Assembly: GCA_026128965.1 (NCBI GenBank)
Contig: JAHCIY010000002.1
Span: 1,384,108-1,448,107 of the forward strand
Direction of reading: 5' to 3'
Source of the DNA: Labilithrix sp.
GTDB taxonomy: Bacteria > Myxococcota_A > Polyangia > Polyangiales > Polyangiaceae
DNA length: 64,000 bases
Under the pieces are notes generated by a model. It saw only the letters and a list, made by a program, of their open reading frames with translations, searched no databases and was not told the DNA's origin. Numbering within the stretch: the stretch's first letter is position 1; each line of letters begins with the position of its first letter. The translations under genes and the position numbers were made by a program. This document shows, in pieces, positions 37,369 through 59,712 of this stretch.

Positions 37369-38259
37369 CTATTCGCTGACCTTCGGGCTCGTCGGCAGAT
37401 GGATGCCGACGCCGACGAAGATCATCTGGTTGAACTTGAAGGTCTGATCCTCGGAGTCGATCTTCAAGTCCGGGAACGACGCGTCCGGGCCCGCGCCACG
37501 CGAGTCGAAGCCGCCGCGGTTGTACGAGAACGGGAACGCGCGGTACTCGACGTTGATGCTGAGGAAGCCCGACGGGTAGAGCGTGAGGCCGAGGCCGAAC
37601 GACGGCGCGATCGCGACGCGGTCGTTCGTGGCGAAGCTCGCCTGCGCGGTGCACGCCGTCTGGCCCGTACCGCCGCAGTTCGCGCGCTCCTTCACGCCGA
37701 CGAACGCGACGCCGCCGTGGAGGTAGAGGTCGGTGTCGACGAACAGCTTCTGGAAGAGGGCGAGCTTGCCGCGGAACGGGCTGAACGAGATCTGGGGCGT
37801 CGCCATCCAGCTCATCTTCCCGGCCTGGTCGCCGAACGCGGGGCTGCCGGCGTTGGCGGGGAGGTTCACCGCCGTGCGCGAGTTACGCGGCGCCGGCGTG
37901 TCGTCGATCCTGTCGGCGAGGTCGGTGTTGAGGCTGAGCGCGTCGGGCGAGAAACCGCCGAAGACGCCGATACCGAGCCAGTCGAAGAGGTTGTACTGGA
38001 GCCGCCCCGAGAGGAAGATCGTGCGCTTGTACTCGTCGAGGAGCGTGAAGCCGCCGCCGAGCGCGATCTCCGCGCGACCTTCGCGGTAGAGACGGAGCTT
38101 GCGGACGGCGGGGGCACCGGCGAGCGGACCGGTGAGCTGGATCTCCTGCGCTTGCGCCTCGGAGGGAGCGGCCGCGACGCCGAGCGCGACGGCGAGCGCG
38201 CCGACGACGCAACGTGCGGTGAAGCTGCGCTTCCGGCTGTTCATCTTGCGCGCTTTCAT
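37369..38259 (-). CDS. Outer-membrane beta-barrel protein (GltA/GltB/NfsA/NfsB-like candidate)
   Basis: Signal peptide …VALGVAAAPSEAQA. Alternating amphipathic beta-strands. Paralog of the upstream gene. ATGA overlap (38256-38259). Confidence 0.6.
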   Translation of the reverse strand: MKARKMNSRKRSFTARCVVGALAVALGVAAAPSEAQAQEIQLTGPLAGAPAVRKLRLYREGRAEIALGGGFTLLDEYKRTIFLSGRLQYNLFDWLGIGVFGGFSPDALSLNTDLADRIDDTPAPRNSRTAVNLPANAGSPAFGDQAGKMSWMATPQISFSPFRGKLALFQKLFVDTDLYLHGGVAFVGVKERANCGGTGQTACTAQASFATNDRVAIAPSFGLGLTLYPSGFLSINVEYRAFPFSYNRGGFDSRGAGPDASFPDLKIDSEDQTFKFNQMIFVGVGIHLPTSPKVSE

Positions 38260-39254
38260 TTCGGCAACCTGTATTCCCAGCTGAACGGCAAGAAGACGCT
38301 GATGCCAACCTGAGCCTGGACGTTCACCGTCAGCGGCTTCTCACCCAACCACGTGCCGGGGTCGGTCTGCTGCGCCTGCGTCGTCCCGACGTTCACGTTC
38401 TCGAGCTGCTCGATGTAGACGTAGTTGCGGACTTCGCCGATGACCGAGAACCAGCGGTTCAAGAAGACGCGGAGACCGAAGCCGAGGTTGAAGGCGATGC
38501 GGTGCTCGTAGTCGAACTTGCGGTTGTCGGGATCGATGACCGCGATCGGACGGGTGAAGAGGCCGCCGACGCCTCCGACGAGGTAGCCGTCGTAGTGGAA
38601 GATGAAGTTCCCGAAGCCGCTGAATTTCCCGTACATCGGGACGTACGTGAAGTTCACCGCGTAGCCCGCGAGGTACTCGTTCAGCGGGACCGCGAGGCGC
38701 GTCGCGCGGCGGTTCTCGAAGTTGAAGTCGGCGTCCCCGTTGAAGGGTTGGTAGTACGTGCCGTTGATGCCGACCGCGAGCACGTTCGTCAGGTAGTAGT
38801 TCACCGCGAGGCCGGGGCCCGGGTGGGTGACGAACTGGTCGTTGAGGCTGAAGCTCCAGTACGGGTTCACCTCGAAGCGACCGCGGCGGAGCGCGTAGAT
38901 CTGCTGCACCGCGTAGACGTCGGCCTTGACGTCACGACCCGCGAGCTTCGCCACGTCCGCCTGCTTGGGGCAGGCGGTGGGGTCGATCTCGCAGATGCCG
39001 CCGCCGGTGTTCGTGTCGCCACCGGTGGTGGGGGGCGGCTCGGGCGGTGGTACGGCGGGCTGGTCGGGCGGCGGCGTGTTCGGATCGTCGATCTCGATGT
39101 CACCGCCCGCCGGCTGCGTGGGCTGGGTGGGCTTTGCTGCCGGTTTCGTCGTTCCCGGTTTGGCGCCGGGCTTCTTCTGCTGCGCGAACGCAGCCGAGGG
39201 CAGCAGCAACAACGCCACCACCAGAAGGAGCCAGCTTCGAGCGTGCTTCATCAA
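38256..39254 (-). CDS. Outer-membrane beta-barrel protein (paralog; Pro-rich N-terminal linker)
   Basis: Signal peptide MMKHARSWLLLVVALLLLPSAAFA. Pro/Thr-rich linker. Beta-strand-rich C-terminal 230 aa ending in an aromatic-rich terminus (…FSWEYRLPK). Confidence 0.6.
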   Translation of the reverse strand: MMKHARSWLLLVVALLLLPSAAFAQQKKPGAKPGTTKPAAKPTQPTQPAGGDIEIDDPNTPPPDQPAVPPPEPPPTTGGDTNTGGGICEIDPTACPKQADVAKLAGRDVKADVYAVQQIYALRRGRFEVNPYWSFSLNDQFVTHPGPGLAVNYYLTNVLAVGINGTYYQPFNGDADFNFENRRATRLAVPLNEYLAGYAVNFTYVPMYGKFSGFGNFIFHYDGYLVGGVGGLFTRPIAVIDPDNRKFDYEHRIAFNLGFGLRVFLNRWFSVIGEVRNYVYIEQLENVNVGTTQAQQTDPGTWLGEKPLTVNVQAQVGISVFLPFSWEYRLPK

Positions 39255-39371
39255 GAACCCCTTCTACGGAACGGCTTGCAAAGCTTCAAAAACATTGAGA
39301 AAATCAGGGGTACTGCAGAGTTGCAGGCCACGATAACACGGATGTTTTTGGCCGAGCAATCCAATTCTCTT

Positions 39372-40613
39372 TCACGCCGCAGCCGCGTCGTCGTCATCCT
39401 TGCCAAACAAGGCCTCGACGAAGTCCGCCGCGACGAATTCCCTGAGATCCTCGGCGCGTTCGCCCAGGCCGATGTAGCGGACGGGGACCTTCAGCTCGTC
39501 GCAGACCCCCAGGACGACCCCGCCTTTGGCGGTTCCATCGAGCTTCGTGAGGATGATGCCGGTGAGCTCGAGGGCCTCCTTGAAGAGCGCCGCCTGCGTG
39601 AGCGCGTTCTGTCCCGTGGTCGCGTCGATGACCAGGAGCGTCTCGTGGGGCGCCCCTTCCATCGCCTTCGCGATGGTGCGCTTCACCTTCTTGATCTCGT
39701 CCATCAGGTTCACCTTCGTGTGAAGACGACCTGCAGTGTCCACGAGAAGAATTTCGGCTCCACTTTCTGTGGCCTTCTTCGTCGCCTCGAAGGCGACCGC
39801 GCCCGGATCGGCGCCTTCCTTGCCCTTCACGACGTCGGCGCCGACGCGTTTGCCCCAGACCTCGAGCTGCTGCACCGCCGCGGCGCGGAACGTGTCGCCG
39901 GCGCCGAGGATCACCTTCTTGCCCTCGGCGTTCCACTTCGTCGCGAGCTTCCCGATCGACGTGGTCTTGCCGACGCCGTTGACGCCGACCATCAAGACGA
40001 CGAGCGGCTTCGCGCCCTTCGGGGGCGCCTGCACCGGGAGCGAGAGGATGCGCGTCGCCTCGGCGCGCAACGCGGCCCACACCGCGTCGCTGTCCGCGAG
40101 CTCGTTCTTCTTCAGCTGATCGCGGAGCCGCTCGAGGATCGCCTGCGTGGTCTTCACGCCGACGTCGCTCGTGATCATCACCTCCTCGATCTGGTCGAGG
40201 ATCGCGGGGTCGATCTCCTTCTTCCCCGTGATGAGCGCCTTCAGCTTCGCCATGAAGCCGCCGCGCGTCGCGGCGAGGCCCTTCCGCAGGCCGGCGACGT
40301 CCTTCTTCGAGACGACGGGCGGGGCCTCCGCGGTCGGCGCGGCCGAGGGCGGCGGCGCGGGCGCTTCTTCTTCCGCTGGGACCTTCGCCGACGGGGCCTT
40401 CGTGGACGGGGCCTTCGTCGACTCCGGCACCTCCGTCTTCGTCGACGGCACCTTCGTGGACGGGACGCTCTCCGCCTTCTTGGCGGGCGGCGGCGCCGCC
40501 TCGGGGCGCTTCGCGGCCGGTTCGGGGAGCGCCGGCTTCTTCCGGAAGAAGAGGAGGTACGCCAGGACCGCCGCCACGATGACGACGCCGATGATGAGGG
40601 GCAGCTTGTCCAT
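39372..40613 (-). CDS. ftsY: Signal recognition particle receptor FtsY
   Basis: N-terminal TM and acidic/Pro-rich region. NG domain motifs [20 protein letters not shown] and [10 protein letters not shown]. Confidence 0.9.
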
Positions 40614-40651
40614 CGAGGTGTGCTCCTTATATGGAGAGCGGCCTTACCCCG

Positions 40652-42442
40652 TCAACGTTGCGTCGGATCGGCGGGTTTGTCGGGCTCGAGCCGCGCGACC
40701 TCGGCCTCGGTCCGGGCGTCGACGTCCCCCGGGCCGAACACCGCATTCTCCATCGCGGCCGCCCATTTGGCGGCGCCGGCCTCGCGCGGATCGCCCTGCG
40801 CGGCGCGGCGGACGTGGCCGGGGGTCGGCTCGGGGCGGACGTCGAAGGGGGCGCCGCGCTTCTTCGCGAACGCGACGAGCTGCGCGAGGAGCGCGCGCCG
40901 TCGCGCCGCGAGCGCGATCGTGAGCTCGCCGGGGGCGGGGAGGGTCTGCGAGAGCCGCGCGTGGAGGTGGCCCTCCGCGATGATGCTCTCGTCGCCGGCG
41001 ATGGGCCCGATGCCCTTCAGCGTGAAGCGGCCGTCCGGTCCGGTCTCGAAGCCGACGAGGCTCGCGCGGCCGTCGAAGGTGCCACGCTCGATCCACACGC
41101 GCGCGCCGGCGATCGGCGTGCCTTCGTGGGCGTCGACGATCTTGCCGGTCCATCCTTCCTGACCGCGCTCGGCGGGGCGCACGACCTCGATGCGCGGCGT
41201 CGGATCGGGGAGCGGATCCGGTTTCCCCGGCGCGGGCTCCGGCTTGATCTTCGGTCCCGACACGCGGCCGACGAGGAAGAACGCGATCACGGCGAGCCCG
41301 GCGAGGAGGAGCGGCGCCTTCGAGAGCAGCGACGGCCCGCGGATCGGCACCCGGATCACCGGCTCGCCGATCGGCTCGTACCAAGGCGCGGACGGGACGT
41401 AGCGGAGGCGCACGAACGCTTCGCTCGACGTCGTCGCGAACGTGAGCGTGAGCCGCGCGATGCCTCGCTCGACCGGCGCCGCGCCGACGACGACCTCGCC
41501 GACGCGCGCCTCGATCGATCCTTCGCCGACGGGGCCGAGGCTCGACGTGACGTCGGCGACGATCGGGATCCCTTCCTCCGGGACCTTCGGCTCGAGCTCG
41601 CCGCGCTCGGCGGCGGGCACCTTCACGTTGACCTTCACGTGACGCTCGATCTCGTGCGTCGTCGTCGTCGCCGCGATGTCGGTGTTGCCGGCGAACGACG
41701 CGCGCAGCTCGCCGACGCCGGGCGGCCCCGCCTTCGCGCCGGAGAACGCGAAGCGCGCGCGTCCGGAGCCGTCCGACGTCGCGCGCGCGATCTCCTCCTT
41801 CTCGTTCGACAGCACGACGACGAGGCCGGGCGCGACGTGCGGCGAGTCCTCGTCGTCGTGCAGCGCGACGGCCTCGACCGTCACGCGCGGCGTGTCGAGC
41901 TCGAGCACCTTCGGCTCGGGATCGAATTTCAAGGCGAGCCCGCGGCGCGAGAGGTCGAAGCCGATCTCGCGCTCGGCGCCGTCGACGAGGCCGCGGCCCC
42001 CGGGCGGCGCGAACACGACCGTCGCTTTGTAGCGATCGGGCTCGAGCGGCGCGCGGAAGCAGAAGCGGCCGGCCTCGTCGGTGGTGATCGCCACCTCCGG
42101 CGCCTCGCGCGGCCCCTGCACCTTCACGACCTGCGCGTGGCCTCTGTCGCACGATCTCGCAGCTCGGATCCCCTCCGCCACCATGGCGTCGTGCGGGTCC
42201 GTCTCGCGCGCGACGCGGACGATCACCGGCTGCCCCGGCATCGCGAGCGAGGCGTCGTCGGTCAATGTGCCGCTGAGGACGAGCTCGGTACGCGCCGCGT
42301 CACCGCCGACCTGCTCCCGCCACCCACGCGCGGAGATCTTCGCCGCTCCACGCACCCGCACTTTCAGCGGCGCGGCGTGCGCGGCCTCGATCATCGCGAA
42401 GAACGCGATGATGAAGAGGCACGCTTGCGAGAGTCTCCACAT
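40652..42442 (-). CDS. Membrane-anchored protein with carboxypeptidase-regulatory-like (CarboxypepD_reg/Ig-like) domains
   Basis: ATG at 42440-42442. Signal peptide. Repeated DEAGRF and GPDGRF beta-sandwich motifs. Internal TM LLLAGLAVIAFFLV. Confidence 0.6.
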   Translation of the reverse strand: MWRLSQACLFIIAFFAMIEAAHAAPLKVRVRGAAKISARGWREQVGGDAARTELVLSGTLTDDASLAMPGQPVIVRVARETDPHDAMVAEGIRAARSCDRGHAQVVKVQGPREAPEVAITTDEAGRFCFRAPLEPDRYKATVVFAPPGGRGLVDGAEREIGFDLSRRGLALKFDPEPKVLELDTPRVTVEAVALHDDEDSPHVAPGLVVVLSNEKEEIARATSDGSGRARFAFSGAKAGPPGVGELRASFAGNTDIAATTTTHEIERHVKVNVKVPAAERGELEPKVPEEGIPIVADVTSSLGPVGEGSIEARVGEVVVGAAPVERGIARLTLTFATTSSEAFVRLRYVPSAPWYEPIGEPVIRVPIRGPSLLSKAPLLLAGLAVIAFFLVGRVSGPKIKPEPAPGKPDPLPDPTPRIEVVRPAERGQEGWTGKIVDAHEGTPIAGARVWIERGTFDGRASLVGFETGPDGRFTLKGIGPIAGDESIIAEGHLHARLSQTLPAPGELTIALAARRRALLAQLVAFAKKRGAPFDVRPEPTPGHVRRAAQGDPREAGAAKWAAAMENAVFGPGDVDARTEAEVARLEPDKPADPTQR

Positions 42443-42580
42443 GGGTGACATCATCGTTGATCGCCCGGAGGTCCAAGCCAATGGACTGCATCGTCGCGTT
42501 GAAGTTTTGGCCGGCGCGGCCGTCGATCTTCCCGCTGAACTATGTGGAGCCAGCGAAAAGCTGTTCCGGAGGCGTGGCGG

Positions 42581-43432
42581 ATGCGTAGACTTGGCTTCGT
42601 GAGACGGCTGCGGGGAAGCGTCATGGCTGCGTCGCTATGTGCGGGCGCGTTGTTCGCGTTCACGCCCGGCGACGCGCATGCGGACAGCGAGCGGATCAGA
42701 TACCTCTCCGAGAAGATGAGGGACAGCGACGCGCGTGTTCGCACGTCCGCCGCGCTCTCGCTCGGCGGAACCAACGACGAAGGCGCGGTCGATCCGCTCT
42801 GCGGCGGGCTCGGCGATCGAGAAGAAGGCGTACGCCAGGCGGCGACGGCGGGCTTGAAGCTCCTCAACAAGCGCAGCGCCTTGCCTTGCCTCGAGGCGCA
42901 CCTGCGCACGGAGTCGAGCGCGGCGGTGAGGGACGCGATCTCGCTCGCGATCAACACGATCAACAAGTCGGGCGGCGGCGGGGACGTGATCAAGGACAAC
43001 CCCAACGCCAAGTACTACATCTCTCTCTCGTCGGTCGCGAACGCGACGAGCCGCGCGAACGCGGAGGTCGAGAAGATCGTCCTCAATTCGGTGAAGGCGA
43101 AGCTCGACGCTGCGGGCACGGTGCAGCTCGCGCCGTCGGCGGGGGAGACGCCGGAGAAGGCGCGGCAGGTGATCAAGGACAAGAAGCTGAAGGGCGGCTT
43201 CTACCTCGCGATCGCGATCGACAACTTCCAGTACGACGGCGGCAACCTTCGCGTGAAGGTGAAGATCGGCGTCTTCAATTACCCGAACAAGTCACTGCTC
43301 GGTAACGTCGACAAGTCGCTCACGGCCCAAGGCGTGTCGAGCGGCGACAAGGCGTCCGAGGACCGTCTCTTGGAGCTCGCGGCGGGTCTCGCCAGCGAGC
43401 AGTTCGCGAACAACGCGTCGCAGTTCTTGTGA
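42581..43432 (+). CDS. Secreted HEAT-repeat protein with C-terminal beta-rich domain
   Basis: Signal peptide. HEAT-like repeats (DARVRTSAALSLG…EEGVRQAATAGLKLL…AAVRDAISLAI). Confidence 0.55.
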   Translation: MRRLGFVRRLRGSVMAASLCAGALFAFTPGDAHADSERIRYLSEKMRDSDARVRTSAALSLGGTNDEGAVDPLCGGLGDREEGVRQAATAGLKLLNKRSALPCLEAHLRTESSAAVRDAISLAINTINKSGGGGDVIKDNPNAKYYISLSSVANATSRANAEVEKIVLNSVKAKLDAAGTVQLAPSAGETPEKARQVIKDKKLKGGFYLAIAIDNFQYDGGNLRVKVKIGVFNYPNKSLLGNVDKSLTAQGVSSGDKASEDRLLELAAGLASEQFANNASQFL

Positions 43433-43448
43433 TCTTGAGAGGAACGTC

Positions 43449-44195
43449 ATGACCACGTCCGCCGAGCCCCGGCCCGCAGCTCCCGTCAAATACAAGCGGA
43501 GCATCAAGAACTACCTGCTAGACGCGAGGTTCCAGCTCAAATGGACCGGGCGCATCATCTTCGTCGCGCTCTTCATCAGCGCGCTGATGGGGTTCCTCCT
43601 CTTCCGCACGAGCGACAAGCTGACGGAGCAGAGCCAGCAGGTCATCGCGCAGGGTGAGAAGCAGATCGCCGAGAGCGAGACGAGCGCGAAGATCGTCGCG
43701 ATGCAGATGGCGGAGAAGTACGCGGACGAGCCGGCGCTCGCCAAGAACTTCAAGGACGAGGAGGACAAGCGCATGGCGGCGCTGCAGCAGCAGCGTGACG
43801 ACCTCAAGGCGCAGGCGCTCAAGACGGCGGAGCAGCAGACGACGATGAAGGTCACGCTCGTCGCAGGCCTCCTTCTCCTCGTCGTGCTCATCGGCATCCT
43901 CGGCATCTTCTTCACGCACAAGGTCGTCGGCCCGATTCACATGATGAAGATCCTCCTTCGTCAGGTCGGCGACGGAAAGCTCAACTTCCACCGCAAGCCC
44001 CGCAAGGGCGACGAGCTCCAGGACTTCTTCCAGGTATTCGCCGAAATGGTCGAAAAGCTGAAGGCCCGCCAAGCCGAAGAGGTAAAGACCCTCGAAGCCG
44101 CGATGGCCGAAGCCAAGGCAACCGGCGCCAGCGACGCCGCAATCGCGAAGATCGCCCTCGTCCGCGACGAGATGCAAGCCGCCCTCGGCAAGTAG
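43449..44195 (+). CDS. Two-TM membrane protein with HAMP domain
   Basis: TM1 IIFVALFISALMGFLLF. Coiled-coil periplasmic segment. TM2 LVAGLLLLVVLIGILGIFF. HAMP segment THKVVGPIHMMKILLRQVGDGKLNF. No output domain. Confidence 0.6.
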   Translation: MTTSAEPRPAAPVKYKRSIKNYLLDARFQLKWTGRIIFVALFISALMGFLLFRTSDKLTEQSQQVIAQGEKQIAESETSAKIVAMQMAEKYADEPALAKNFKDEEDKRMAALQQQRDDLKAQALKTAEQQTTMKVTLVAGLLLLVVLIGILGIFFTHKVVGPIHMMKILLRQVGDGKLNFHRKPRKGDELQDFFQVFAEMVEKLKARQAEEVKTLEAAMAEAKATGASDAAIAKIALVRDEMQAALGK

Positions 44196-44207
44196 TCTTT
44201 CACGGTC

Positions 44208-45235
44208 AGGGGCTTCGCCCCCGACACCCCCACCCCGCGAACACGGCCCTCGCGCTGCGCGCTCGGGTTGCTTCGCAACCGCTGTCGCGGCCGCTTTCGC
44301 GGGGCCCCGGTCCCGCTCGCAAAGCCGCTCGCGCACGGCCCTCGCGCTGCGCGCTCGCGCACGGCCCTCGCGCTTCGCTCGGGTTGCTTCGCACCCGCTT
44401 TCGCGGGCCCGGTCGCAAGCCGCTCGCGCAGCGCGCTCGCGCACGGTCCTCGCGCAGCGCGCTCGTGTTGCTTCGCGCCCGCTGTCGCGGCCGCTTCGCG
44501 GGGCCCCGCTCGCAAGCCGCTAGCGCTCGGCGTGCACGCCGTGCGCGCTCGGTGGTGGGCGCAAGCCGCTCGCGCACGGTCCTCGCGCAGCGCGCTCGTG
44601 TTGCTTCGCGGCCGCTTTCGCGGGGCCCCGGTCGCAGGCCGGCCGCGCTCGGCGTGCACGCCGCGCGCGTTCGGTGGTGGGCGCAAGCCGTTCGCGCTCG
44701 GTGGCGGCTGCGACCGGTCGTGGGGCGCAAAGCCGCTCGCGCTCGGTGGTGGGCTCGGCGCGCCCGCTGTTCGCGCTCCGTAGCGCTCGGGCGTCCGCCG
44801 TTCGTGCTCGGTCGTGGTCGTCGGTCGCCAGCCGTTCTCGCTCGGTGGGGGCTCCGGCACAGCCGGTCGCCTCGGTCATGGGCGCGTTCGCGTTCGCGCT
44901 CGTGGGGTCGCCCAGCCGTTCGCCTCGGTCGTGGGGTCCGCCGGCGGTCGTGAGCCGTTCGCGCTCGGTCGTGGGGGCGCCGGTCGCCAGCCGTTCGCCT
45001 CGGTCGTGGGTGCGCCGGCGGTCGTGAGCCGTTCGCGCTCGGTCGTGGGGGCGCCACCGATCGCCAGCCGTTCGCGCTCGGTCGTGGGGGCGCCACCGAT
45101 CGCCAGCCGTTCGCGCTCGGTCGTAGGGTCGCCACCGATCGCCAGCCGTTCGCCTTGGTCATGGGGGCCGCCGGTCGTGAGCCGTTCGCCTCGGTCGTGG
45201 GGTCGCTGCTGGTCGTGAGCCGTTCGCGCTCGGTC
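44208..45235. repeat. ~1-kb noncoding tandem-repeat array seeded by an inverted REP/MITE-like element
   Basis: Begins with the inverted core (ggggcttcgcccccgacacccccacccc…gggttgcttcgcaacc). Followed by about five decaying partial copies. Then ~10 tandem 39-nt units (ccgttcgcgctcggtcgtgggggcgccaccgatcgccag) with point variants. Units lack unique spacers, so it is not a CRISPR. Confidence 0.8.
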
Positions 45236-45648
45236 GTGGGGCGCGCGGCACGGACAGGCGGGCCACGGGCGCAGACGCGGCGCCGCGGGAGGGACGCCGC
45301 ATCTACGTGCGCTTTCTTTAGGCGCGCACGACTCTCCAGTTCGCTGCGACGCCTTCGGTATGCGGCGTCGCGAGGATCTGCCTTTCGCTCCGCATCGCGC
45401 CTGCATCCCAGCCACCGATCCATTCCCGAGTCCACCACCCAGCCCCCAGCATCCGAGTCGCCGCACGCTCCACCGCAAAGCACCCGCACGACGGCCGCTC
45501 GGCCCTCTTCGCGGGCGTCCGACTTCCGCGTTCGGTCGCGAGCGCAGATGCGGAGCGCGCCGCTGGAGCGGGCCTCTGCACGTCGGGTGTCGGGTTCGTG
45601 CGTGTGGGTTTCACGCAACTTCGCGGTGCGGCGACCGAGCAGCGCGCG

Positions 45649-46128
45649 ATGACGCATGCATCGAAGCCGTCCGGCGACGCAGCGGCCTATGAGCGCGCCG
45701 AACATCCCGCGGCGCGCGAACCTCCCGTTGCGCGTGGCGAACGCTCCGCTGCGCGTGGCGAACGGTCTGCGGTGAGGAGCACCGTGTCGGTTGGGCGTGA
45801 GTACGAGGATGCTGCGGTCGAGGTCCTGCGGGGGGCGGGCTTCGAGGTTCTCTGGCGGAACCTGCGTATCGGGCACCTCGAGGTCGACCTCGTCGCGCGG
45901 CGCGATGACCTCGTGGTCATCGTGGAGGTCCGCTACCGCGGCGGAAGTGCGCTCGACACGGCGCTCGCGAGCGTCACACGACAAAAGCGCGCGCGGCTAC
46001 TCCGCGCCGCTCGCGGCCTCTGGCGCGGGCGCCTGAGCAAGATGCAAGGCATCTCCCGAGTCCGCCTCGACGTGATCGCGATCAACCCCTCCGGCACGAA
46101 GTGGATTGAAGGCGCCTTCACGGAGTAG
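45649..46128 (+). CDS. YraN-family (UPF0102) endonuclease
   Basis: GREYEDAAVEVLRGAGFEVLWRNLRIGHLEVDLVARRDDLVVIVEVRYR matches the YraN core. Start uncertain (ATG 45649 or GTG 45772). Confidence 0.7.
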   Translation: MTHASKPSGDAAAYERAEHPAAREPPVARGERSAARGERSAVRSTVSVGREYEDAAVEVLRGAGFEVLWRNLRIGHLEVDLVARRDDLVVIVEVRYRGGSALDTALASVTRQKRARLLRAARGLWRGRLSKMQGISRVRLDVIAINPSGTKWIEGAFTE

Positions 46129-46139
46129 CGCGCGGGCTC

Positions 46140-46859: not shown

Positions 46860-47179
46860 CGACGCGAACGGTACTGGTTTGCGGCAAGGAGCGTCAATCT
46901 CATTCAACATCATCGCGGCACCCCATCGTCCTGAAGGAGTGGCGGAGGCCCACACCGACGGCTCACCCAAGACGACACGCAGGGGGCGGGTCTGTGAGCC
47001 GTCGGCCGACCTTCGGACGACTCGTGAGAGAAGAACCGGCAGCCCCGGTTCCGTGCTTGACAACCTCGCTGCGGCCTCCGTACCATCACGCCGCCCGCGG
47101 GGATTATCTTGTCAAAAACGTTCGGGAATTCCCCGGACGAGCTAGGCTCCGCACCTCACGACCCAGAGGAACCACCAGG

Positions 47180-48933: not shown

Positions 48934-51900
48934 ATGAAGCGTGTCTTTCAATCTCTCGCGTTCGGCGGCGTGTTTGCGCTCGCGGCGCACGCGGCGGCGG
49001 CGGAAGTCTGTATCGACGAGAAGGCGAAGAGCACCCTCTCCGCGTGCGGAGGTGGCATCGCGCCGAAGGAGTTCAAAGGGTCGAAGACTCCGACCACGAA
49101 CTTCCACTCCGCGCCGCAGCCCGCCGACCTGAAGAAGAAGGGCGACATCAAGCCCGGCAAGCCGAACATCGAGGAGGCCCCGCGCGACGAGCGCAAAAGC
49201 CGCCTCCAGGCTCGCCAGCGCGCGCTCCTCGTCACGGAGATCCAGGGCCTCGAGCGCCTCTTCGAGACGACGGCGAAGAACAAGCCCGATCGCCCGCAGC
49301 TCGCGCGGCGCCTCGCCGAGGCGTACGTCGAGCTCGAGTCGGCCGCCTTCCGCGACAAGACGCAGGCCGAGATCAAGCGCGACGACATGAAGAAGTCGAA
49401 CCCCGCCGGCGCGGGCCAGCAGCAGACCCAGGCCAACCAGGCCGATCAGGTCATGAAGGCGGCGCGCAAGAAGGCGATCGACAACTACACGATCATCGTC
49501 AACGAGTACCCGACCTACGGCCAGCTCGACGAGGTCCTCTACTACCTCGCCTACGAGTACGAGCAGGCGAACGACCTCGCCAACGCGCGCCGCGTCTACT
49601 TCGATCTCATCAAGAAGGCGCCGCAGTCGAAGTACATCCCGAACGCCTACCTCGCGTTCGGCGAGCTCTTCTTCAACGAGGCGCAGGGCGATCCCTCCAA
49701 GTGGGACCTCGCCGCGCAGGCGTACCAGGAGGTGACGAAGTACCCGGCGCCGGCGAACAAGGTCTACGGCTACGCCTGGTACAAGCTCGGCTACGTCTTC
49801 TGGAACAAGGGCGAGCTCGAGAAGTCGCTCAACGCCTTCAAGAAGACGATCGAGTTCGGCGTCGTCAACTCGCAGCTCCCGGGCGCGAGCAAGCTCGCCG
49901 ACTCCGCGCGCCGCGACGTCATCCCGGTCTACGCGCTGAAGGGCGACCCCGCGCAGGCGTACAACTTCTTCCACAACATCTCGGGCGACTCCTCGGGCAA
50001 CGAGAAGACGTTCAAGATGATGGACGACCTCGGCGTCAACTACCTCGACACCGGCCACTACCAGGAGGCGATCGTCCTCTACAAGGACCTCCTCACCCGC
50101 GATCGCGGCGGTCGTCAGTGCGTGTACCAGGCGCACATCACCGAAGCGACGATGGCGATGAAGTCGTCGAACAAGGACGCGATCGTCAAAGAGATCGATC
50201 AGCAGGTAAAGCTGCACAACGAGGTCCGCGCCGGCAGCTTCACCGCCGAGCAGAAGACGGAGTGCGCGAACAAGACCGCGGCCCTCACGACCGAGACCGC
50301 GATGGCGTGGCACCTCGAGGCGGTCGGCTCGCAGGGCCAGCGCGGCACCGGCGACACCAAGTCGATGGCGCTCGCGGCGCAGCTCTACAAGAAGGTCGTC
50401 GATACCTGGAAGACCGACGAATACGCGAAATTCGAGTTTCCGCGCATCGTCAAGGAAGACTGGCCGACGATCTACAAGATCAAGTACGCGATGGCGGACT
50501 TGCTCTACTTCCAGAAGGACTGGGCGAAGTGCGGCCCCGCCTTCGACGCGGTCGTCGAGGAGAACCCGCAGGCGCCGGAGGCGGCCGAGTCCGCGTACGC
50601 GGCGGTGCTCTGCTACCAGAACATCTACGAAGAGACGCACAAGGGCGACGCCGCGAAGAAGGGCTCGGGCAACCTCCCGGGTCAGGGCGACACGAAGAAG
50701 GGCGACAAGAAGGCCCAGGCCGCGGCCGAGGCGGCGGCGCTCAAGCCGAAGGAGATGACCGACAGCCAGAAGGGCATGGTCTCCGCCTTCAACAAGTACA
50801 TCTGCTACATCAAGCCGGCCGCGGGCGACGCGCAGGGGCAGGAGCAGCTCGTCGAGGTCAAGTACGCGCGCTCGCGTACGTACTTCGAGGCGCAGCACTG
50901 GGACGAGGCCGCGGTCGGGTTCCGCGACATCGCGATGAACCACGCCGACCGTGACGTCGGCATCTACGCCGCGCAGCTCTACCTCGAGAGCGTCAACGTC
51001 CTCGGCTCCCACTTCTCGAAGACGTCGTGCTTCGACGACATGGAGAACGACGTGCCGAAGTTCATCGAGCTCTACTGCTCGGCGGACAAGCTCGCGAAGA
51101 ACCAGGAGCAGTGCACGACGCTCAACAAGATCCAGGTCGACATCCTCCGCCTCAAGAGCCAGAAGCTCGTCGAGCGCGCGGACAAGGAAGGCGGCAAGGA
51201 GGCGATCAGCCTCTACGAGAAGGGCGGCACCGCCTACTTCGAGATGTTCCGGCGCTACTGCCAGGACCCGGTCAACAACAACCAGCCGCCGCAAGCCGAG
51301 AAATGCGACGAAATCGCGTACAACGCGGCGCGCTCGTTCCAGGCCGCGCGCCTCGTCGCGAAGGCGATCACGGTCCGCCGCGCGCTGCTCGCCTACGACG
51401 AGAAGACGAAGGGCAACTCGCCGCTCGCCAAGAAGGCGACCTACGAGATCGGCGGTAACTACCAGGCGATCGCGGTCTACGACCTCGCCGCCGAGTGGTA
51501 CGAGAAGTACGCGAAGACCGACCCGAACGCGCCCGACGCCGACAAGGCGCTCGCCGACGCCGTCGTCCTCCGCCTCGGCCTCGGCCAGGAGGACCTCGCG
51601 ATCCAGGACGCGCAGCTCTTCACGAAGAACTACGGCGGCAAGAAGCCGGCGCAGACGGCCTCGATCGCGTTCGCGGTCGGCGCGCACTACGCCGACAACG
51701 AGCAGTGGGACAAGGCGAAGGGCGCGCTGACGGGCTCGATGAGCACGATCGACAAGGCCGCCCCCGACATCCAGGTCCAGGCGCACGCGACGCTCGCGCG
51801 CGCGTACGAGAAGCTGAAGCAGAACGCCTCGGCGAAGACCGAATACGCGAAGGTCCGCGGCTACTGGTCGAACCCCGGCGCGGCCGAGGAGAAGATCAAG

Positions 51901-52671
51901 GCGGCGTACCCGGACGAGGACGCCAACCAGAAGGAGCGCCGCCTCGCGAAGGCGCTCAACGCCGTCGGCGAAGCGTTCTTCTACGCCGCCGAGGAGAAGC
52001 GCAAGGCCGACGTCGAGCCGGTGAAGTTCCCGGCGTACACCGGGCCCGGCGACAAGGCGACGGTGCTCAAGCACATCAACACGAAGGTCAAGGACTGGTA
52101 CCTGAAGAAGCAGGCCGCCATCGTCAAGACCGAGCCCGAGTACGTGAAGATCCTCGAGCTCAAGCCGGTGCCGCCGCCGAAGTGGGTCATCGCGGCCGGT
52201 TCGCGCGCCGGCCTCATGTGGGGCGACCTCGTCGACGACTTCCGCCGCGCGCCGATCCCGGCGGCGTGGAAGACGGACGCGGAGCTCCGCGGCGCGTACT
52301 TCGACGCGCTCGACAACGCGAGCGAGCCCTACAAGGTCCAGCACGCGAAGCCGGCGCTCAAGAAGTGCCTCGACCTCTCCGTGAAGTACCAGTACTTCGA
52401 CGAGTACAGCCGCGCGTGCGAGGTCTGGCTCGCGAAGAACTACAAGGCCGAGTACCACGTCGTCGACGAGCTCCGCGGCGCCCCGACGCTCGCGAACTCG
52501 GGCCTCGACGAGAAGGCGCCGCCGGTCCTCCCCGACGGCACGTTCTGGCACCCGCAGGCCCCGGCCCCCGAGAAGAACGCGGCGGGCACGGCGTCGAGCG
52601 ACGACGACAACAAGGGCGGCAAGCCCGCGGCGAAGCCCACGAAGCCGGCCGCGAAGCCGAAGAAGAAGTGA
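48934..52671 (+). CDS. Large secreted Lys-rich TPR-repeat protein, 1245 aa (GltD/NfsD-like candidate)
   Basis: ATG 8 nt after the upstream stop. Signal peptide MKRVFQSLAFGGVFALAAHAAAA. TPR-like helical repeats throughout. Lys-rich C-terminal tail. Confidence 0.8.
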   Translation: MKRVFQSLAFGGVFALAAHAAAAEVCIDEKAKSTLSACGGGIAPKEFKGSKTPTTNFHSAPQPADLKKKGDIKPGKPNIEEAPRDERKSRLQARQRALLVTEIQGLERLFETTAKNKPDRPQLARRLAEAYVELESAAFRDKTQAEIKRDDMKKSNPAGAGQQQTQANQADQVMKAARKKAIDNYTIIVNEYPTYGQLDEVLYYLAYEYEQANDLANARRVYFDLIKKAPQSKYIPNAYLAFGELFFNEAQGDPSKWDLAAQAYQEVTKYPAPANKVYGYAWYKLGYVFWNKGELEKSLNAFKKTIEFGVVNSQLPGASKLADSARRDVIPVYALKGDPAQAYNFFHNISGDSSGNEKTFKMMDDLGVNYLDTGHYQEAIVLYKDLLTRDRGGRQCVYQAHITEATMAMKSSNKDAIVKEIDQQVKLHNEVRAGSFTAEQKTECANKTAALTTETAMAWHLEAVGSQGQRGTGDTKSMALAAQLYKKVVDTWKTDEYAKFEFPRIVKEDWPTIYKIKYAMADLLYFQKDWAKCGPAFDAVVEENPQAPEAAESAYAAVLCYQNIYEETHKGDAAKKGSGNLPGQGDTKKGDKKAQAAAEAAALKPKEMTDSQKGMVSAFNKYICYIKPAAGDAQGQEQLVEVKYARSRTYFEAQHWDEAAVGFRDIAMNHADRDVGIYAAQLYLESVNVLGSHFSKTSCFDDMENDVPKFIELYCSADKLAKNQEQCTTLNKIQVDILRLKSQKLVERADKEGGKEAISLYEKGGTAYFEMFRRYCQDPVNNNQPPQAEKCDEIAYNAARSFQAARLVAKAITVRRALLAYDEKTKGNSPLAKKATYEIGGNYQAIAVYDLAAEWYEKYAKTDPNAPDADKALADAVVLRLGLGQEDLAIQDAQLFTKNYGGKKPAQTASIAFAVGAHYADNEQWDKAKGALTGSMSTIDKAAPDIQVQAHATLARAYEKLKQNASAKTEYAKVRGYWSNPGAAEEKIKAAYPDEDANQKERRLAKALNAVGEAFFYAAEEKRKADVEPVKFPAYTGPGDKATVLKHINTKVKDWYLKKQAAIVKTEPEYVKILELKPVPPPKWVIAAGSRAGLMWGDLVDDFRRAPIPAAWKTDAELRGAYFDALDNASEPYKVQHAKPALKKCLDLSVKYQYFDEYSRACEVWLAKNYKAEYHVVDELRGAPTLANSGLDEKAPPVLPDGTFWHPQAPAPEKNAAGTASSDDDNKGGKPAAKPTKPAAKPKKK

Positions 52672-52679
52672 GGGATCCC

Positions 52680-54104
52680 ATGAAGCGCATCACCACGATC
52701 CTCGGAGCCTCCCTCCTCCTCCTCTCCGCCGCGTGCGGAGGGGGAGACAAACAGGACGCGAAGTCGCCGGGCGCCGGCGGCGGCAAGGGAGGCGGCGGCG
52801 GCGCGGCCACCGTGCTCTCGAAGGACGAGCAGGCGAGGTTCAACGCCGCGGTCGACCTCATGGTCGAGCACGACAAGAAGAACGACTGGAACAACGAGAC
52901 CTGCGCCGAGGTCGCGAAGGCGTTCGACGCCGTCGGCCGCAGCGCGCCGGCGCTCTTCAACTCCGGCCTCGCGTACCAGCGCTGCAACGACGACAAGAAC
53001 GCGAAGGCGAAGTTCGAGGCCGCCCTCCAGGCGGACGCGAAGTTCCACCACGCGCGCGCGCAGCTCGCGCTCTACCAGTACAAGGCGGACTCGAACGAGA
53101 ACGCGGCGATCGACGCGCTCCAGCAGGCCGTCACCGACGCGCAGTTCCAGAACGTCCCCGCGCTCGTCAACCTCGCGATGGTCCAGATGGCCCGCGACAG
53201 CGCGCAGGGCGGCCAGGGCTGCAAGGACGACATGGACTGCGCGAAGCTGAACCTGCAGCGCGCGCTCGCGATCGACGACGCGTTCATGCCGGCGTTCAAC
53301 CAGCTCGCGCTCTACTACTTCCAGCTCGCGAAGAAGCGCGCCGGCGCGGTGAAGGGCTCGAGCAAGTCGGCGAAGGGCCGTCAGGTCGTCACCAACGCGT
53401 CGGTCGCGAAGAAGGCGGACGTGCAGCAGCTCGAGCTCGCGGCGCTGGTCTGCTCGCAGGCGATCCGCAAGAACGCGAACTACGCCCCGATCCACAACAC
53501 GGCCGGCCTCATCCAGAACGAGCTCGGTCAGATCAACGGCGCGGTCGCGGAGTTCAAGCAGGCGGCCCAGCTCGATCCGAAGTTCTTCGAGGCGCAGATG
53601 AACTACGCCGCGGTCAACCTCGGCTTCCGCGGCTTCGAGCAGGCCGCGGGCGCGTACAAGCGCGCGCTCGAGATGCGCCCGAACGACTACGACGCGCACC
53701 TCGGCCTCGCCCTCGCGATCCGCGGTCCGATCACCGGCAGCGAAGCCGACTACGACCAGCGCCTCGCCGCGGTGCAGGCGGAGCTCGACGCGGCGAAGAA
53801 GATCGATCCGAACCGGCCCGACGCCTACTACAACGAGGGCATCTTCACCCAGGAGTTCAAGGCGAAGTCCGGCGGCGCGCCGGCGAAGACGATCGCGACG
53901 CTCGAGGAGGCGAAGAAGATCTTCCAGACCTTCCTCGAGAAGGCGAGCGGCAAGCCGGAGTACGACGGCGCGGTCAAGCGCGTGAAGGGCGACGGGACGC
54001 CGAAGGACGCCGGCCGCATCGGCGACATCGACGACACGATCGCCTTCCTCAAGCTCGACGCGAACGCGCAGAAGGACGCCGCGAACCAGGGCGACACGAA
54101 GTAG
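52680..54104 (+). CDS. TPR-repeat lipoprotein, 474 aa (GltE/NfsE-like candidate)
   Basis: ATG 8 nt after the upstream stop. Lipobox LLSAAC. Gly-rich linker. TPR repeats. Confidence 0.75.
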   Translation: MKRITTILGASLLLLSAACGGGDKQDAKSPGAGGGKGGGGGAATVLSKDEQARFNAAVDLMVEHDKKNDWNNETCAEVAKAFDAVGRSAPALFNSGLAYQRCNDDKNAKAKFEAALQADAKFHHARAQLALYQYKADSNENAAIDALQQAVTDAQFQNVPALVNLAMVQMARDSAQGGQGCKDDMDCAKLNLQRALAIDDAFMPAFNQLALYYFQLAKKRAGAVKGSSKSAKGRQVVTNASVAKKADVQQLELAALVCSQAIRKNANYAPIHNTAGLIQNELGQINGAVAEFKQAAQLDPKFFEAQMNYAAVNLGFRGFEQAAGAYKRALEMRPNDYDAHLGLALAIRGPITGSEADYDQRLAAVQAELDAAKKIDPNRPDAYYNEGIFTQEFKAKSGGAPAKTIATLEEAKKIFQTFLEKASGKPEYDGAVKRVKGDGTPKDAGRIGDIDDTIAFLKLDANAQKDAANQGDTK

Positions 54105-54105: not shown

Positions 54106-54125
54106 CCCTGATCCGTCAGGGCTTG
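54106..54125. terminator. Short hairpin between convergent genes
   Basis: ccctga-tccg-tcaggg lies between the stop of 52680..54104 and the stop of 54116..55884. Confidence 0.3.
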
Positions 54126-55884: not shown

Positions 55885-55938
55885 TCGTACGGAATCCAAG
55901 GAGAGCGGCAATCGCCACCCGCACGCGATACGCTATCG

Positions 55939-57014: not shown

Positions 57015-57302
57015 ATGAAGAAGCGGGTTCTGATCGGTCTTGTCGCTGCATTCGTTCTCTCGACCGCGTCCGCGGCCTTCGCCCAACAGCCGGGCGGCGG
57101 TGCGGCGGCGGCGAAGGCGACCGGCGGTGGCGGCAAAGACGAGGGCTACGGCTACGAGTTCTCCGACGATCCCCTCGCGGCAGGCGGCTTCGGCCCGAAT
57201 GACGCGACGATCCGTGTGCGCCCCGGCCCGGTGCGCACGACCCTGATTCGTCCGCGCACGTCTTTCGTGCCCGAGATGTTGAAGAGCGTCGAGAACCTCT
57301 GA
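57015..57302 (+). CDS. Small secreted Gly-rich protein, 95 aa (GltF/NfsF-like candidate)
   Basis: Strong RBS aggagtcgaag before the ATG. Signal peptide MKKRVLIGLVAAFVLSTASAAFA. Confidence 0.5.
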   Translation: MKKRVLIGLVAAFVLSTASAAFAQQPGGGAAAAKATGGGGKDEGYGYEFSDDPLAAGGFGPNDATIRVRPGPVRTTLIRPRTSFVPEMLKSVENL

Positions 57303-57425: not shown

Positions 57426-57450
57426 AACCGCCCGAGAAAGACCAGGAAAG

Positions 57451-59712
57451 ATGGAAGGCAAGGCGAAGGTTGCTCTGACGTTCGCGCTCTACCAGGGCGA
57501 TCAGCTCGTGCGCCGCGACACGATCGCCCAGGACATCGTGAAGGTCGGCAAGGACCCGCGCAGTCACCTGCGCGTCGATGACGATCTCGCGTCGCGCATG
57601 CACGCGGTCATCGAGGTCGCGGGCCCGAACGACATCACCCTGATCGATCTCGGCAACGAGCCGGGCACGATGGTGAACGGCCAGCGCGTCAACAAGTGCA
57701 AGGTGCGTCCGGGCGACCAGATCCAGATCGGGTCGACGATGATTCACCTCGAGAGCGCCGAGCTCGCCGCCGGCGCGCCCGCGCCTGCGCCCACCGCGGG
57801 CGGCACCGCCGCGATGCCGGCGCAGTCGGGGATCTCGGCGCCGCCGCCGCCGCCCACCCCGCAGATGGGCCTCGGCGCTCCGCCGCGCAACACGCCGACG
57901 GAGGCGATCCAGCAGCAGCAGCACTCGACGCAGCTCGGCGGTCACGGCGCTCCGCCGCCCCCGCCGGCCGTCGCCGCCGCGGCCGCGAACCCGTTCGGCG
58001 CGCCCTCGGCCTCGCAGCCGCCGCCGAACCCGTTCGCCGCGCCGGCGGGACATGCCAGCGCGCCGCCTCCGCCGCCGCCGCCGAACCCGTTCGCGCAGGC
58101 GAACCCGTTCGCCGCGGTCGCGAGCCCGTTCGCCGCGGTCGCGAACCCGTTCGTCGCGTCCGCCGCGGAGCAGGGCAACTACGGCATCAACGCGCCGGGC
58201 GGTTCGGACTTCGATCCGAACCAGCCGTACACGTTCTCGCTCGTGAAGAGCGGCCCCGAGGTCCATCCCGACGAGGTCGAGACGCACGCGGCGGCGATCG
58301 AAGTCCTCGTGAAGTGGGACCAGAACACGCTCCACGTCCAGCACAGCTCGCCGCCGAAGAGCTTCTTCGTCGGTGAGGAAGCGAGCGACTACTTCATCCC
58401 GAGCGAGACGCTCGGCACGACGCGCGCGCCGGTCGTCGTCGCGCGCGGCGTCAGCGCGACGCTCATCATGCTCCCGCGCTCGAGCGGCACGGTGGAGATC
58501 CCGGGGCAGGGGACGTTCTCGTTCCAGGACCTCATCGCGTCCGGCCGCGCGCGCTCCTCCTCCGAGATGAGCGGCGCGCACGAGCTCGATCTCCCGAACA
58601 ACGCGAAGGCGAGGATGGAGCTCGAGGGCTCGGGTCTCGTCTTCGAGGTCAGCGCCGTCAACGCGGGCAAGTCGCCGCCGGTCGGCGTGTTCTCGAGCCT
58701 CGAGCCGGCCGCGTACATGTTCATCGGCCTCTCGTTCCTCCTCCACATCGGCATCGTCGCCTCGATGGCGTTCTTCATGCCGAAGATGGGCGGCGACGAC
58801 GCCGAGGCGATCGACCGCGATCAGCTCCTGCTCATGCAGAAGATGCTGAACGCCGCGGCCGAGCGCGAGCAGGAGGAGAAGGAGACCGAGCAGCAGCCGG
58901 ACGCGAACGCCGATCAGAAGGAAGGCGGCACCGGCACGCGCGCGAAGGGGGAAGAGGGGTCGATGGGCAACCCCAACACCCAGGACACGAACAAACGCTA
59001 CGGCGTGCAAGGACCCGCCGACAACGCGGACCCGCACATCGCGCGTCAGGCTGCGCTCAAGGAGGCGCAGGAGTTCGGCATGATCGGCCTCATCAACGTC
59101 GGCGCGGGCGGCGATCCCAACGCCCCGACCGCGCCGTGGGGTCGCGACGACTCGCTCGGCAACGACCCGCTCTCCGCGCGCGGCAACATGTGGGGTGACG
59201 CGATCGGCGACGCGTTCGGCGCCGGCGGTCTCGGCCTCTCCGGCGTCGGCGAAGGCGGCGGCGGTCGCGGCGAGGGCATCGGCCTCGGCAACGTCGGTAC
59301 GCTCGGCCACGGCGCGGGCACCGGCACCGGCCAGGGCTTCGGCAACGGCCACGGCCGCCTCGGCGGCTCGCACGCGACCAAGGCCCCGTCGCTCCGTCAG
59401 GGCACGACGCAGGTCAACGGTCGTCTCCCGCCGGAGGTCATCCAGCGCATCGTCCGCCAGAACTTCGGTCGCTTCCGTCTCTGTTACGAGAACGGCCTCC
59501 GCAACAACCCGACCCTCTCCGGTCGTGTCAGCGTGAAGTTCGTCATCGACCGCTCCGGCGCCGTCTCGACCGCGCAGGACGGCGGCTCGGAGCTCCCGGA
59601 CCAGGGCGTCATCAGCTGCGTCGTCCGCGGCTTCGGCAACCTCTCCTTCCCGCAACCGGAAGGCGGCATCGTCACCGTCGTCTACCCGATCATCTTCAAC
59701 CCCGGCGACTGA
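57451..59712 (+). CDS. FHA-domain inner-membrane protein with Pro-rich linker and TonB_C/AgmX-PglI-type C-terminal domain (GltG/NfsG-like candidate)
   Basis: N-terminal FHA (VKVGKDPRSHLRVDDDLASRMHAVIEV…ITLIDLGNEPGTMVNGQRV). PPPP/NPF-rich region. TM AAYMFIGLSFLLHIGIVASMAFF. Gly-rich segment. C-terminal …VIQRIVRQNFGRFRLCYENGL…GRVSVKFVIDRSGAVS… TonB-C-like fold. Confidence 0.75.
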   Translation: MEGKAKVALTFALYQGDQLVRRDTIAQDIVKVGKDPRSHLRVDDDLASRMHAVIEVAGPNDITLIDLGNEPGTMVNGQRVNKCKVRPGDQIQIGSTMIHLESAELAAGAPAPAPTAGGTAAMPAQSGISAPPPPPTPQMGLGAPPRNTPTEAIQQQQHSTQLGGHGAPPPPPAVAAAAANPFGAPSASQPPPNPFAAPAGHASAPPPPPPPNPFAQANPFAAVASPFAAVANPFVASAAEQGNYGINAPGGSDFDPNQPYTFSLVKSGPEVHPDEVETHAAAIEVLVKWDQNTLHVQHSSPPKSFFVGEEASDYFIPSETLGTTRAPVVVARGVSATLIMLPRSSGTVEIPGQGTFSFQDLIASGRARSSSEMSGAHELDLPNNAKARMELEGSGLVFEVSAVNAGKSPPVGVFSSLEPAAYMFIGLSFLLHIGIVASMAFFMPKMGGDDAEAIDRDQLLLMQKMLNAAAEREQEEKETEQQPDANADQKEGGTGTRAKGEEGSMGNPNTQDTNKRYGVQGPADNADPHIARQAALKEAQEFGMIGLINVGAGGDPNAPTAPWGRDDSLGNDPLSARGNMWGDAIGDAFGAGGLGLSGVGEGGGGRGEGIGLGNVGTLGHGAGTGTGQGFGNGHGRLGGSHATKAPSLRQGTTQVNGRLPPEVIQRIVRQNFGRFRLCYENGLRNNPTLSGRVSVKFVIDRSGAVSTAQDGGSELPDQGVISCVVRGFGNLSFPQPEGGIVTVVYPIIFNPGD

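Follow-up and report, generated by a model that had tools for sequence, protein, structure and literature searches.

RESULTS

Gene content of a glt-like locus in Labilithrix

We analyzed a 64,000-nucleotide stretch of Labilithrix sp. DNA (assembly GCA_026128965.1, contig JAHCIY010000002.1, positions 1,384,108 to 1,448,107 of the forward strand), hereafter the window, and focused on a set of genes in it that resemble the genes for the Agl-Glt and Nfs trans-envelope machineries of Myxococcus xanthus. Genes were chosen by third-position GC, the window being ~70% G+C, and were then checked against the annotated gene calls of a record with identical sequence (GCA_019637155.1, contig JAHBWE010000008.1). 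An initial annotation of the same DNA had described a rearranged Glt/Nfs-like machinery with homologues of components A to G, and family models, architectures, and gene positions relative to published tables (Luciano et al. 2011) all agreed with that family assignment. The glt-like genes are as follows.

37369..38259, minus strand: gltA-like outer-membrane beta-barrel, 296 amino acids (aa), with a signal peptide; 52.3 bits to TIGR04565, below the cut-off of 60
38256..39254, minus strand: gltB-like outer-membrane beta-barrel, 332 aa, with a signal peptide; 87.9 bits to TIGR04565 (OMP_myx_plus), above the same cut-off
47180..48925, plus strand: gltC-like periplasmic TPR protein, 581 aa, with a signal peptide; 294.5 bits to NF033756 (gliding_GltC)
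48934..52671 (open reading frame [ORF] opens at 48913), plus strand: gltD-like large periplasmic TPR protein, 1245 aa, with a signal peptide and TPR matches
52680..54104, plus strand: gltE-like TPR lipoprotein, 474 aa, with lipobox LLLSAAC and TPR matches
57015..57302, plus strand: gltF-like small secreted protein, 95 aa, with a signal peptide
57451..59712 (alternative start 57421), plus strand: gltG-like inner-membrane protein, 753 aa, with an FHA domain, a transmembrane helix, and a TonB-like C-terminal domain
61771..64000, plus strand: 5′ part of a gltI/agmK-like gene for a giant cytoplasmic TPR protein, open to the window end, with TPR matches and no signal peptide

Signal peptides, lipobox, and transmembrane topology were as expected for each component. 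The two barrel genes overlap by 4 bp, and the gltB-like gene, the first of the pair, adjoins ftsY, a neighbor that is kept in Polyangiales loci. The pair lies ~8 kb from the gltC-like gene on the opposite strand. Direct BLASTP between the two products gave a weak match (E 0.002); hhalign of the two orthologue families gave 97% probability (E 9e-11) over 212 columns, and because the orthologue profiles align, we regard the barrels as paralogues. Tandem paralogous barrels had been reported at 37369..39254, and the signal peptides, the TIGR04565 matches, and the profile alignment all bear this out. The locus thereby contains the paired outer-membrane barrels, GltA and GltB, of the Agl-Glt machinery.

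Gaps of 8 bp each separate gltC from gltD and gltD from gltE. These three tightly linked TPR proteins, the last a lipoprotein, had been recognized initially, and our coordinates, gaps, and lipobox coincide with that description. The NF033756 alignment to the gltC-like protein spanned model positions 116–619 of 622 at a score below the cut-off of 450, and the gltE-like protein matched part of NF033758 (gliding_GltE) with 53.6 bits (E 1.7e-14; cut-off 225). Comparison with the Glt models, proposed initially as a check, gave matches below the equivalog cut-offs for GltC (E 1.9e-87) and GltG (E 2.7e-90), whereas none of the NCBIfam Glt models matched the 1245-aa protein. We assigned this protein to GltD because its counterpart in Sorangium cellulosum So ce56, sce2915, is listed as a homologue of MXAN_4870; like GltD, it is a secreted TPR protein of ~1200 aa encoded beside gltE. 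The 95-aa secreted protein was found where it had been described, and aligned end to end with NF033764 (gliding_CglF; 20.3 bits, E 4e-4, cut-off 90).

The gltG-like protein scored 303.8 bits against NF033760 (gliding_GltG; cut-off 650), and its AgmX/PglI C-terminal domain exceeded the cut-off of 40 for NF033768 (83.6 bits, E 7.7e-24). Its FHA domain matched PF00498 with 53.7 bits, and a transmembrane helix was predicted at residues 434–452. In the AlphaFold2 model (pLDDT 75–92), a beta domain at 7–105, a second at 270–405, and an alpha/beta domain at 656–750 are joined by disordered segments, with the transmembrane helix (419–442) directly after the second beta domain. Foldseek searches with this model returned FHA domains and TonB C-terminal domains (6sly, 7zc8, 6fip, 2grx). 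The order is therefore FHA, disordered Pro/Ala linker, second beta domain, transmembrane helix, disordered periplasmic segment, and TonB-like C-terminal domain, and the initial description of an FHA, Pro-rich, transmembrane, and TonB_C/AgmX-PglI architecture was supported. The same layout is reported for M. xanthus GltG, which has an N-terminal FHA domain, an FHA-like domain before the transmembrane helix, a disordered periplasmic segment, and a domain like the TonB C-terminal domain (Cambillau and Mignot 2025, PMC11761067). The closest relatives of the window protein, at 80–93% identity, come from Labilithrix sp. metagenome-assembled genomes (MAGs), L. luteola, and Polyangiaceae. Among solved structures, sequence searches found no match for the GltC-like protein or the barrel, generic TPR proteins only for the GltD-like protein, and FHA domains only for the GltG-like protein.

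The gltI-like gene is annotated in the source record as encoding 3812 aa. A search with its N-terminus returned fragments labeled "TPR" or "hypothetical," with no full-length or named AgmK among them. We assigned the gene to GltI from its length and position, the predicted location of its product, and the published table, in which the counterparts sce2920 and sce2921 (1774 and 2081 aa) are homologues of MXAN_4863 (gltI/agmK) and Stigmatella AgmK has 4089 aa (Luciano et al. 2011, PMC3169522). By size and position it corresponds to the giant cytoplasmic TPR scaffold of the Agl-Glt machinery. The initial annotation had found no H, I, J, or K homologue in the window; this stands for H, J, and K, none of which was recognizable among the ORFs scanned, and is corrected for I.

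Scores for GltG and GltC reached 47–65% of the equivalog cut-offs, and those for GltE and GltF were far lower. On sequence evidence, the proteins that match Glt models appear to be clear homologues lying outside the range of Myxococcus-centered equivalog models. In an exhaustive search of representatives with GltG (28,937 matches), the best 150 were all uncultured Polyangia-type proteins, and none of the ten FHA-bearing representatives scanned reached the equivalog cut-off (highest score 464 versus 650 bits).

As a side observation, only 33 of these best 150 GltG representatives carried an FHA domain, most of the set being FHA-less relatives of 450–550 aa of the sce5940 or MXAN_1919-1923 type. 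Their sequences point to a second Glt-like paralogue family, one without FHA, that is spread very widely among uncultured Polyangia.

Conserved gene order and the Sorangium counterpart

A scan with the GltD-like protein, keeping one genome per species, yielded 78 loci, against which every window protein was compared using tblastn. Every named record belonged to the Polyangiales/Polyangiaceae (Labilithrix, Sorangium, Chondromyces, Polyangium, and Byssovorax), the rest being MAGs with broader labels. The gltD-like protein was 50–87% identical to proteins in these loci. Nearly every locus of sufficient length showed one order: gltB-like, gltA-like, ftsY, the gene for a 609-aa CarboxypepD_reg protein, a HEAT gene, the gene for a 248-aa protein with two transmembrane helices, UPF0102, a small Cys-rich lipoprotein gene, gltC-D-E-F-G, a TPR lipoprotein gene, and the giant TPR gene. 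GltC was found in 75 of the 78 loci, GltE in 74, the Cys-rich lipoprotein in 72, GltF in 68, GltG in 65, the HEAT protein in 64, the 609-aa protein in 63, FtsY in 58, the TPR lipoprotein in 55, and the giant TPR protein in 54; most of the genes missing from these counts fall where the fetched DNA or the contig stops. The order recurs in ~70 species of the Polyangiales, with Sorangium, Chondromyces, Polyangium, and L. luteola among them, and this recurrence, together with the GltC and GltG matches, is far beyond chance. What had been described as a rearranged locus, namely barrels, six genes, C-D-E-F-G, and TPR genes, is the conserved state in the Polyangiales.

The same arrangement has been tabulated for So ce56, with sce2906 (292 aa), sce2907 (308 aa, a gltB homologue), sce2914 (568 aa, gltC), sce2915 (1289 aa, gltD), sce2916 (497 aa, gltE), sce2917 (90 aa, gltF), and sce2918 (681 aa, gltG) (Luciano et al. 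2011, Table S3, PMC3169522). In the machine-read Table S3, gltA-type barrels, including NfsA (MXAN_3371), stand under "MXAN_2541," evidently equivalent to gltA. By position and size, the gltB-like gene corresponds to sce2907, listed as a homologue of MXAN_2539 (gltB), and the gltA-like gene to sce2906; gltE and gltF correspond to sce2916 and sce2917. From sce2906 to sce2921, the So ce56 series reads 292, 308, six genes, 568, 1289, 497, 90, 681, one gene, and the TPR GltI-like genes, and the window series reads 296, 332, six genes, 581, 1245, 474, 95, 753, a 304-aa TPR lipoprotein, and the giant TPR gene. The six genes of the window equal in number the six locus tags sce2908-2913. In other Sorangium genomes, identity to the window over the best aligned segment was 58–59% for D, 64–71% for C, and ~59–66% for G.

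Several differences separate the two. The GltI-like protein is encoded by a single gene in the window and by two genes in So ce56. Absent from Sorangium are the gene pair in the gltE-gltF interval, the Uma2 gene after gltG, and the genes for an enhancer-binding protein, a LysR regulator, and an F420-type oxidoreductase beyond the barrels; the window also differs in its 1-kb array of repeats and in the inversion of its UPF0102 gene. By gene order and protein sizes, the locus is orthologous to S. cellulosum sce2906-sce2921. It is an ordinary Polyangiales glt locus (Sorangium/Labilithrix branch) of a type already tabulated for S. cellulosum in 2011.

These comparisons bear on the initial suggestion of an undescribed variant or third paralogous system. 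The failure of every NCBIfam gliding (Glt) match to reach its equivalog cut-off would fit such a system, as would the insertions between gltE and gltF and between gltG and the TPR genes. We nevertheless attach next to no probability to it: order and sizes match the catalogued S. cellulosum genes (sce2906/2907, sce2914-2918, and sce2920/2921), the arrangement is the common state in 78 Polyangiales genomes, and the only genomes with the insertions are those of the window and its closest relative.

Comparison with Agl-Glt, Nfs, and core complexes

With the M. xanthus Agl-Glt system (clusters G1, MXAN_4862-4870; G2, MXAN_2538-2541; and M1, aglRQS), the window shares A, B, C, D, E, F, G, and I, with the same localization signals and the same GltG domain layout. 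It differs in forming one locus, whereas M. xanthus has two, and no GltH, GltJ, GltK/CglC, CglB, or AglRQS was recognizable in the window. GltH, GltJ, GltK/CglC, and CglB are also not listed for S. cellulosum. In So ce56, two aglRQS sets lie at sce2991-2996, ~70 genes from the glt locus (PMC3169522).

The core complex of Gammaproteobacteria, Geobacter, and Fibrobacter, limited to "Group B" genes, consists of an operon of gltC-D-E-G and aglRQS. The window shares its C, D, E, and G families; core complexes have adjacent motor genes and lack A, B, F, and I, whereas here A, B, F, and I are present and no aglRQS genes are linked to gltC-D-E-G within 64 kb.

The Nfs machinery (nfsA-H, MXAN_3371-3378) would wrap spore-coat polysaccharide around the differentiating cell. 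Its protein families and sizes are the same as those in the window, being close to the 294, 442, 512, 1219, 499, 96, and 682 aa of NfsA-G, and C-D-E-F-G are contiguous as in nfsC-G. The contiguity of C-D-E had been taken initially to favor nfs over the split glt clusters, a leaning that was not supported. C-D-E are also listed as contiguous in Haliangium (Hoch_2490-2492). One operon encodes all of NfsA-H, with H but no I, J, or K, and in published trees the duplication that gave glt and nfs falls in a terminal branch. The window shows the opposite on both H and I, its A and B genes lie 8 kb away on the other strand, and the locus is kept across the Polyangiales whatever the life style. L. luteola, moreover, has been reported not to aggregate, fruit, or sporulate. 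Since GltI is present, H is absent, and Labilithrix is non-sporulating, a spore-coat role is unlikely, and an Nfs-type machine proper is in our view a very improbable explanation of the locus. Judged by the published phylogeny, the locus is most likely co-orthologous to both Glt and Nfs and older than the duplication that separated them, and it most likely keeps together in one place the genes that M. xanthus has in clusters G1 and G2.

Functional reading of the locus

By analogy with M. xanthus, we consider it likely that the locus is the Labilithrix copy of Agl-Glt-type trans-envelope machinery, the gliding force transducer, with the AglRQS motor encoded outside the window. In such a machine, the two paralogous GltB/GltA-like barrels would form the outer-membrane platform, and GltC would dock beneath them from the periplasm. 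GltD would serve as a periplasmic pillar that binds the lipoprotein GltE and the small GltF, with GltF bridging GltC, GltD, and GltG. GltG would cross the inner membrane, where its transmembrane helix and adjoining beta domain may bind the proton-driven, TolQR-like AglR5QS motor, while its long disordered periplasmic segment, together with the TonB-like C-terminal domain, would hold GltD, and the FHA domain at its N-terminus would bind the giant cytoplasmic TPR scaffold GltI. Movement of the motor would then pass through GltG and GltD to the outer-membrane platform and appear as surface gliding. Every partner in this scheme is encoded in the window, the motor excepted. The scheme draws on published work in M. 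xanthus, where the barrels are mutually stabilizing (Jakobczak 2015), GltG binds AglR in a two-hybrid assay, and contacts are predicted between the GltG FHA domain and GltI, between GltC and the barrels, and for GltF bridging GltC, GltD, and GltG. Any bacterium with AglRQS and GltA-G has been proposed as a potential glider (Luciano et al. 2011, PMC3169522).

Some points weigh against a gliding function. No AglRQS, GltH, GltJ, GltK, or CglB homologue was recognizable among the window ORFs scanned, and no MotA/ExbB/ExbD-type gene lies within the 64-kb window. The matches to the NCBIfam gliding models all stay under their equivalog cut-offs, and placement relative to the Glt, Nfs, and G4/G5 paralogues rests on published statements. 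We know of no experiment on any Polyangiales glt locus, and that Labilithrix glides is an assumption taken from its species description. Finally, a comparative-genomics preprint reads as if A-motility-specific genes were absent from L. luteola.

Regarding this last point, the L. luteola DSM 27648 locus (NZ_CP012333.1, 6978442-7002178; L061 in our sample) contains gltC, D, E, F, and G homologues with 74–97% identity to the window proteins over the best aligned segment. The discrepancy probably reflects the search thresholds of the preprint. The glt and agl genes have also been surveyed in 61 myxobacterial genomes (Islam et al. 2023).

That no H, J, K, or CglB was recognizable in the window or listed for S. 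cellulosum also bears on another reading, in which a Glt-like surface transporter moves or organizes a surface polymer (polysaccharide, slime, or capsule) and does not drive cell movement, because these proteins are essential for M. xanthus gliding. Such a role has been proposed for core complexes in bacteria that do not glide and for extra M. xanthus paralogues, the literature treats Agl-Glt/Nfs as versatile surface transporters with several paralogues of unknown function, and L. luteola is reported to be non-social. The locus, however, carries A, B, F, and I, the "Group A" additions that are tied to the motility version of the machinery, and Bdellovibrio glides without H, I, J, and K. Sorangium and its relatives, which are gliders, carry the same locus. 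We therefore regard a polymer-transport role as unlikely, and prefer the gliding machinery.

Other features in and around the locus

The remaining features of the region are listed below.

35870..37333, minus strand: FHA-sigma54 enhancer-binding protein, from domain matches
39372-40613, minus strand: ftsY
40652-42481, minus strand: 609-aa secreted CarboxypepD_reg/Ig protein, from domain matches
42542-43432, plus strand: secreted HEAT protein, from domain matches
43449-44195, plus strand: 248-aa protein with two transmembrane helices
45604-46128, plus strand: UPF0102, from a domain match
46140-46739, minus strand: 199-aa Cys-rich putative lipoprotein, divergent from gltC
47057..47086, plus strand: sigma-70-like promoter (TTGACA, 18-nt spacer, TACCAT) upstream of gltC, 10 of 12 consensus positions; a consensus match only
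54116-55876, minus strand: 586-aa Cys-rich lipoprotein in the gltE-gltF insertion, no family match
55941-56807, plus strand: 288-aa membrane protein in the gltE-gltF insertion, no family match
59837..60445, plus strand: Uma2-family endonuclease gene (PF05685, E 2.8e-28)
60677..61591, plus strand: 304-aa TPR lipoprotein with TPR matches and a lipobox-like signal peptide (LSVTGC)

The site at 47057-47086 was the sole promoter-like site in 46-62 kb, and an Rfam scan of 33-64 kb of the window gave zero matches.

The initial annotation had drawn attention to an FHA-sigma54 activator beside the barrel genes. It is indeed there, though the adjacency is not conserved: the activator is not beside the barrels in L010, L048, L049, or L057. 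In L048, L049, and L057, a homologue of the HEAT gene at 33439-34185 directly adjoins the gltA-like gene, and in L048 and L049 a homologue of the Cache gene at 31959-33398 is also beside it. In the window, the interval between the gltA-like gene and this HEAT/Cache pair (34189-37333) holds the activator, a LysR regulator, and an F420-type oxidoreductase, and because the HEAT and Cache genes adjoin gltA in those loci, this suggests a three-gene insertion in the window lineage. A search for sigma54 promoters of the -24/-12 type gave 13 matches versus 38 expected by chance, with none upstream of the barrel operon (39255-39371) or gltC (47064-47179). We rejected a functional link between activator and barrels, given the unconserved adjacency and the lack of a sigma54 promoter signal; as its place beside the gltA-like gene is not conserved, the activator is probably unrelated to the barrels.

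The two genes that the initial annotation placed between gltE and gltF are likewise present, as a lineage-specific insertion: among the 78 loci, they have homologues only in the closest relative, L001. The gltE-gltF gap measures 130–800 bp in most genomes. Longer gaps occur at 54105-57014 in the window and at 15252-19517 in L001, 15159-18171 in L002, 12783-19698 in L011, 13896-16867 in L044, 15147-19186 in L060, and 15255-17194 in L067. The L002 cargo comprises MbnP/MbnH-like genes, and L044, L060, and L067 contain extra partial gltD (C-terminal half) and/or gltE copies, that is, local tandem duplications. Judging from these sequences, the gap is an insertion hot spot with unrelated cargo across genomes.

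The Uma2 gene is essentially confined to the window, related loci giving just a weak match in L013. From the distribution of homologous sequences, the gltE-gltF pair, the Uma2 gene, and the FHA-sigma54 activator are lineage-specific insertions. The 304-aa TPR lipoprotein was found in 55 of the 78 loci, always between gltG and the gltI-like gene, whose own position was conserved in 54. Its similarity to GltE (E 9e-6) and to Tgl/PilW-type TPR lipoproteins is weak; its position is that of sce2919, which is not among the listed S. cellulosum Glt homologues.

The six-gene block between the barrels and gltC (39372..46739) keeps its synteny in 58–72 of the 78 loci, with the UPF0102 gene inverted in the window relative to most relatives. 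The 199-aa lipoprotein, with ~18 conserved Cys residues, keeps its position in 72 loci and matched none of the families searched. It has 2007 database homologues; among the 120 matches listed, identities were 64–100% and all were unnamed, and a protein 100% identical to it is labeled Labilithrix sp. KIT84_18215. Its structure model, with a mean pLDDT of 55, was too poor for fold comparison with GltK/CglC.

Next to the UPF0102 gene lies a ~1-kb stretch (44226-45250; ~77% G+C) without a codon-position signal or annotated gene, made of direct repeats: a 39-nt unit present 8.9 times at 44906-45244, plus arrays in which the period is 34 or 26 nt. The repeat core AGCCGTTCGCGCTCGGT occurs 11 times, all on the plus strand, versus 0.12 expected. 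The array is not CRISPR-like and is absent from all 78 related loci, where a short spacer is found instead. An ORF of 592 aa at 44206-45984 on the minus strand was rejected as a gene, as it has no codon-position GC signal, overlaps the repeat array, and runs antisense to UPF0102.

DISCUSSION

Taken alone, the finding matters little, as a glt locus of this kind is what one would expect in a Labilithrix-like genome. Labilithrix genomes, including that of L. luteola, do carry gltC-G despite the published statement on A-motility genes, and gltA, gltB, and gltI-like genes are also present in Labilithrix genomes where the fetched DNA reaches them. The merged G1 and G2 arrangement, with gltI, is strictly conserved across ~70 Polyangiales species, and this conservation supports the split Myxococcus clusters as the derived state.

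The locus also provides a short list of conserved neighboring envelope genes as candidates for accessory parts. Some of the genes for the 609-aa CarboxypepD_reg/Ig protein, the HEAT protein, the 248-aa protein with two transmembrane helices, the 199-aa Cys-rich lipoprotein, and the 304-aa TPR lipoprotein may encode lineage-specific parts that replace GltH, GltJ, GltK, and CglB, which seem to be missing from these genomes, or the five may be no more than conserved neighbors. The basis for this proposal is conserved gene order, and the same block also holds the housekeeping genes ftsY and UPF0102; we consider it a doubtful, rather improbable idea. If true, the locus would be an ancestral single-locus gliding apparatus in which the outer-membrane and adhesin module differs.

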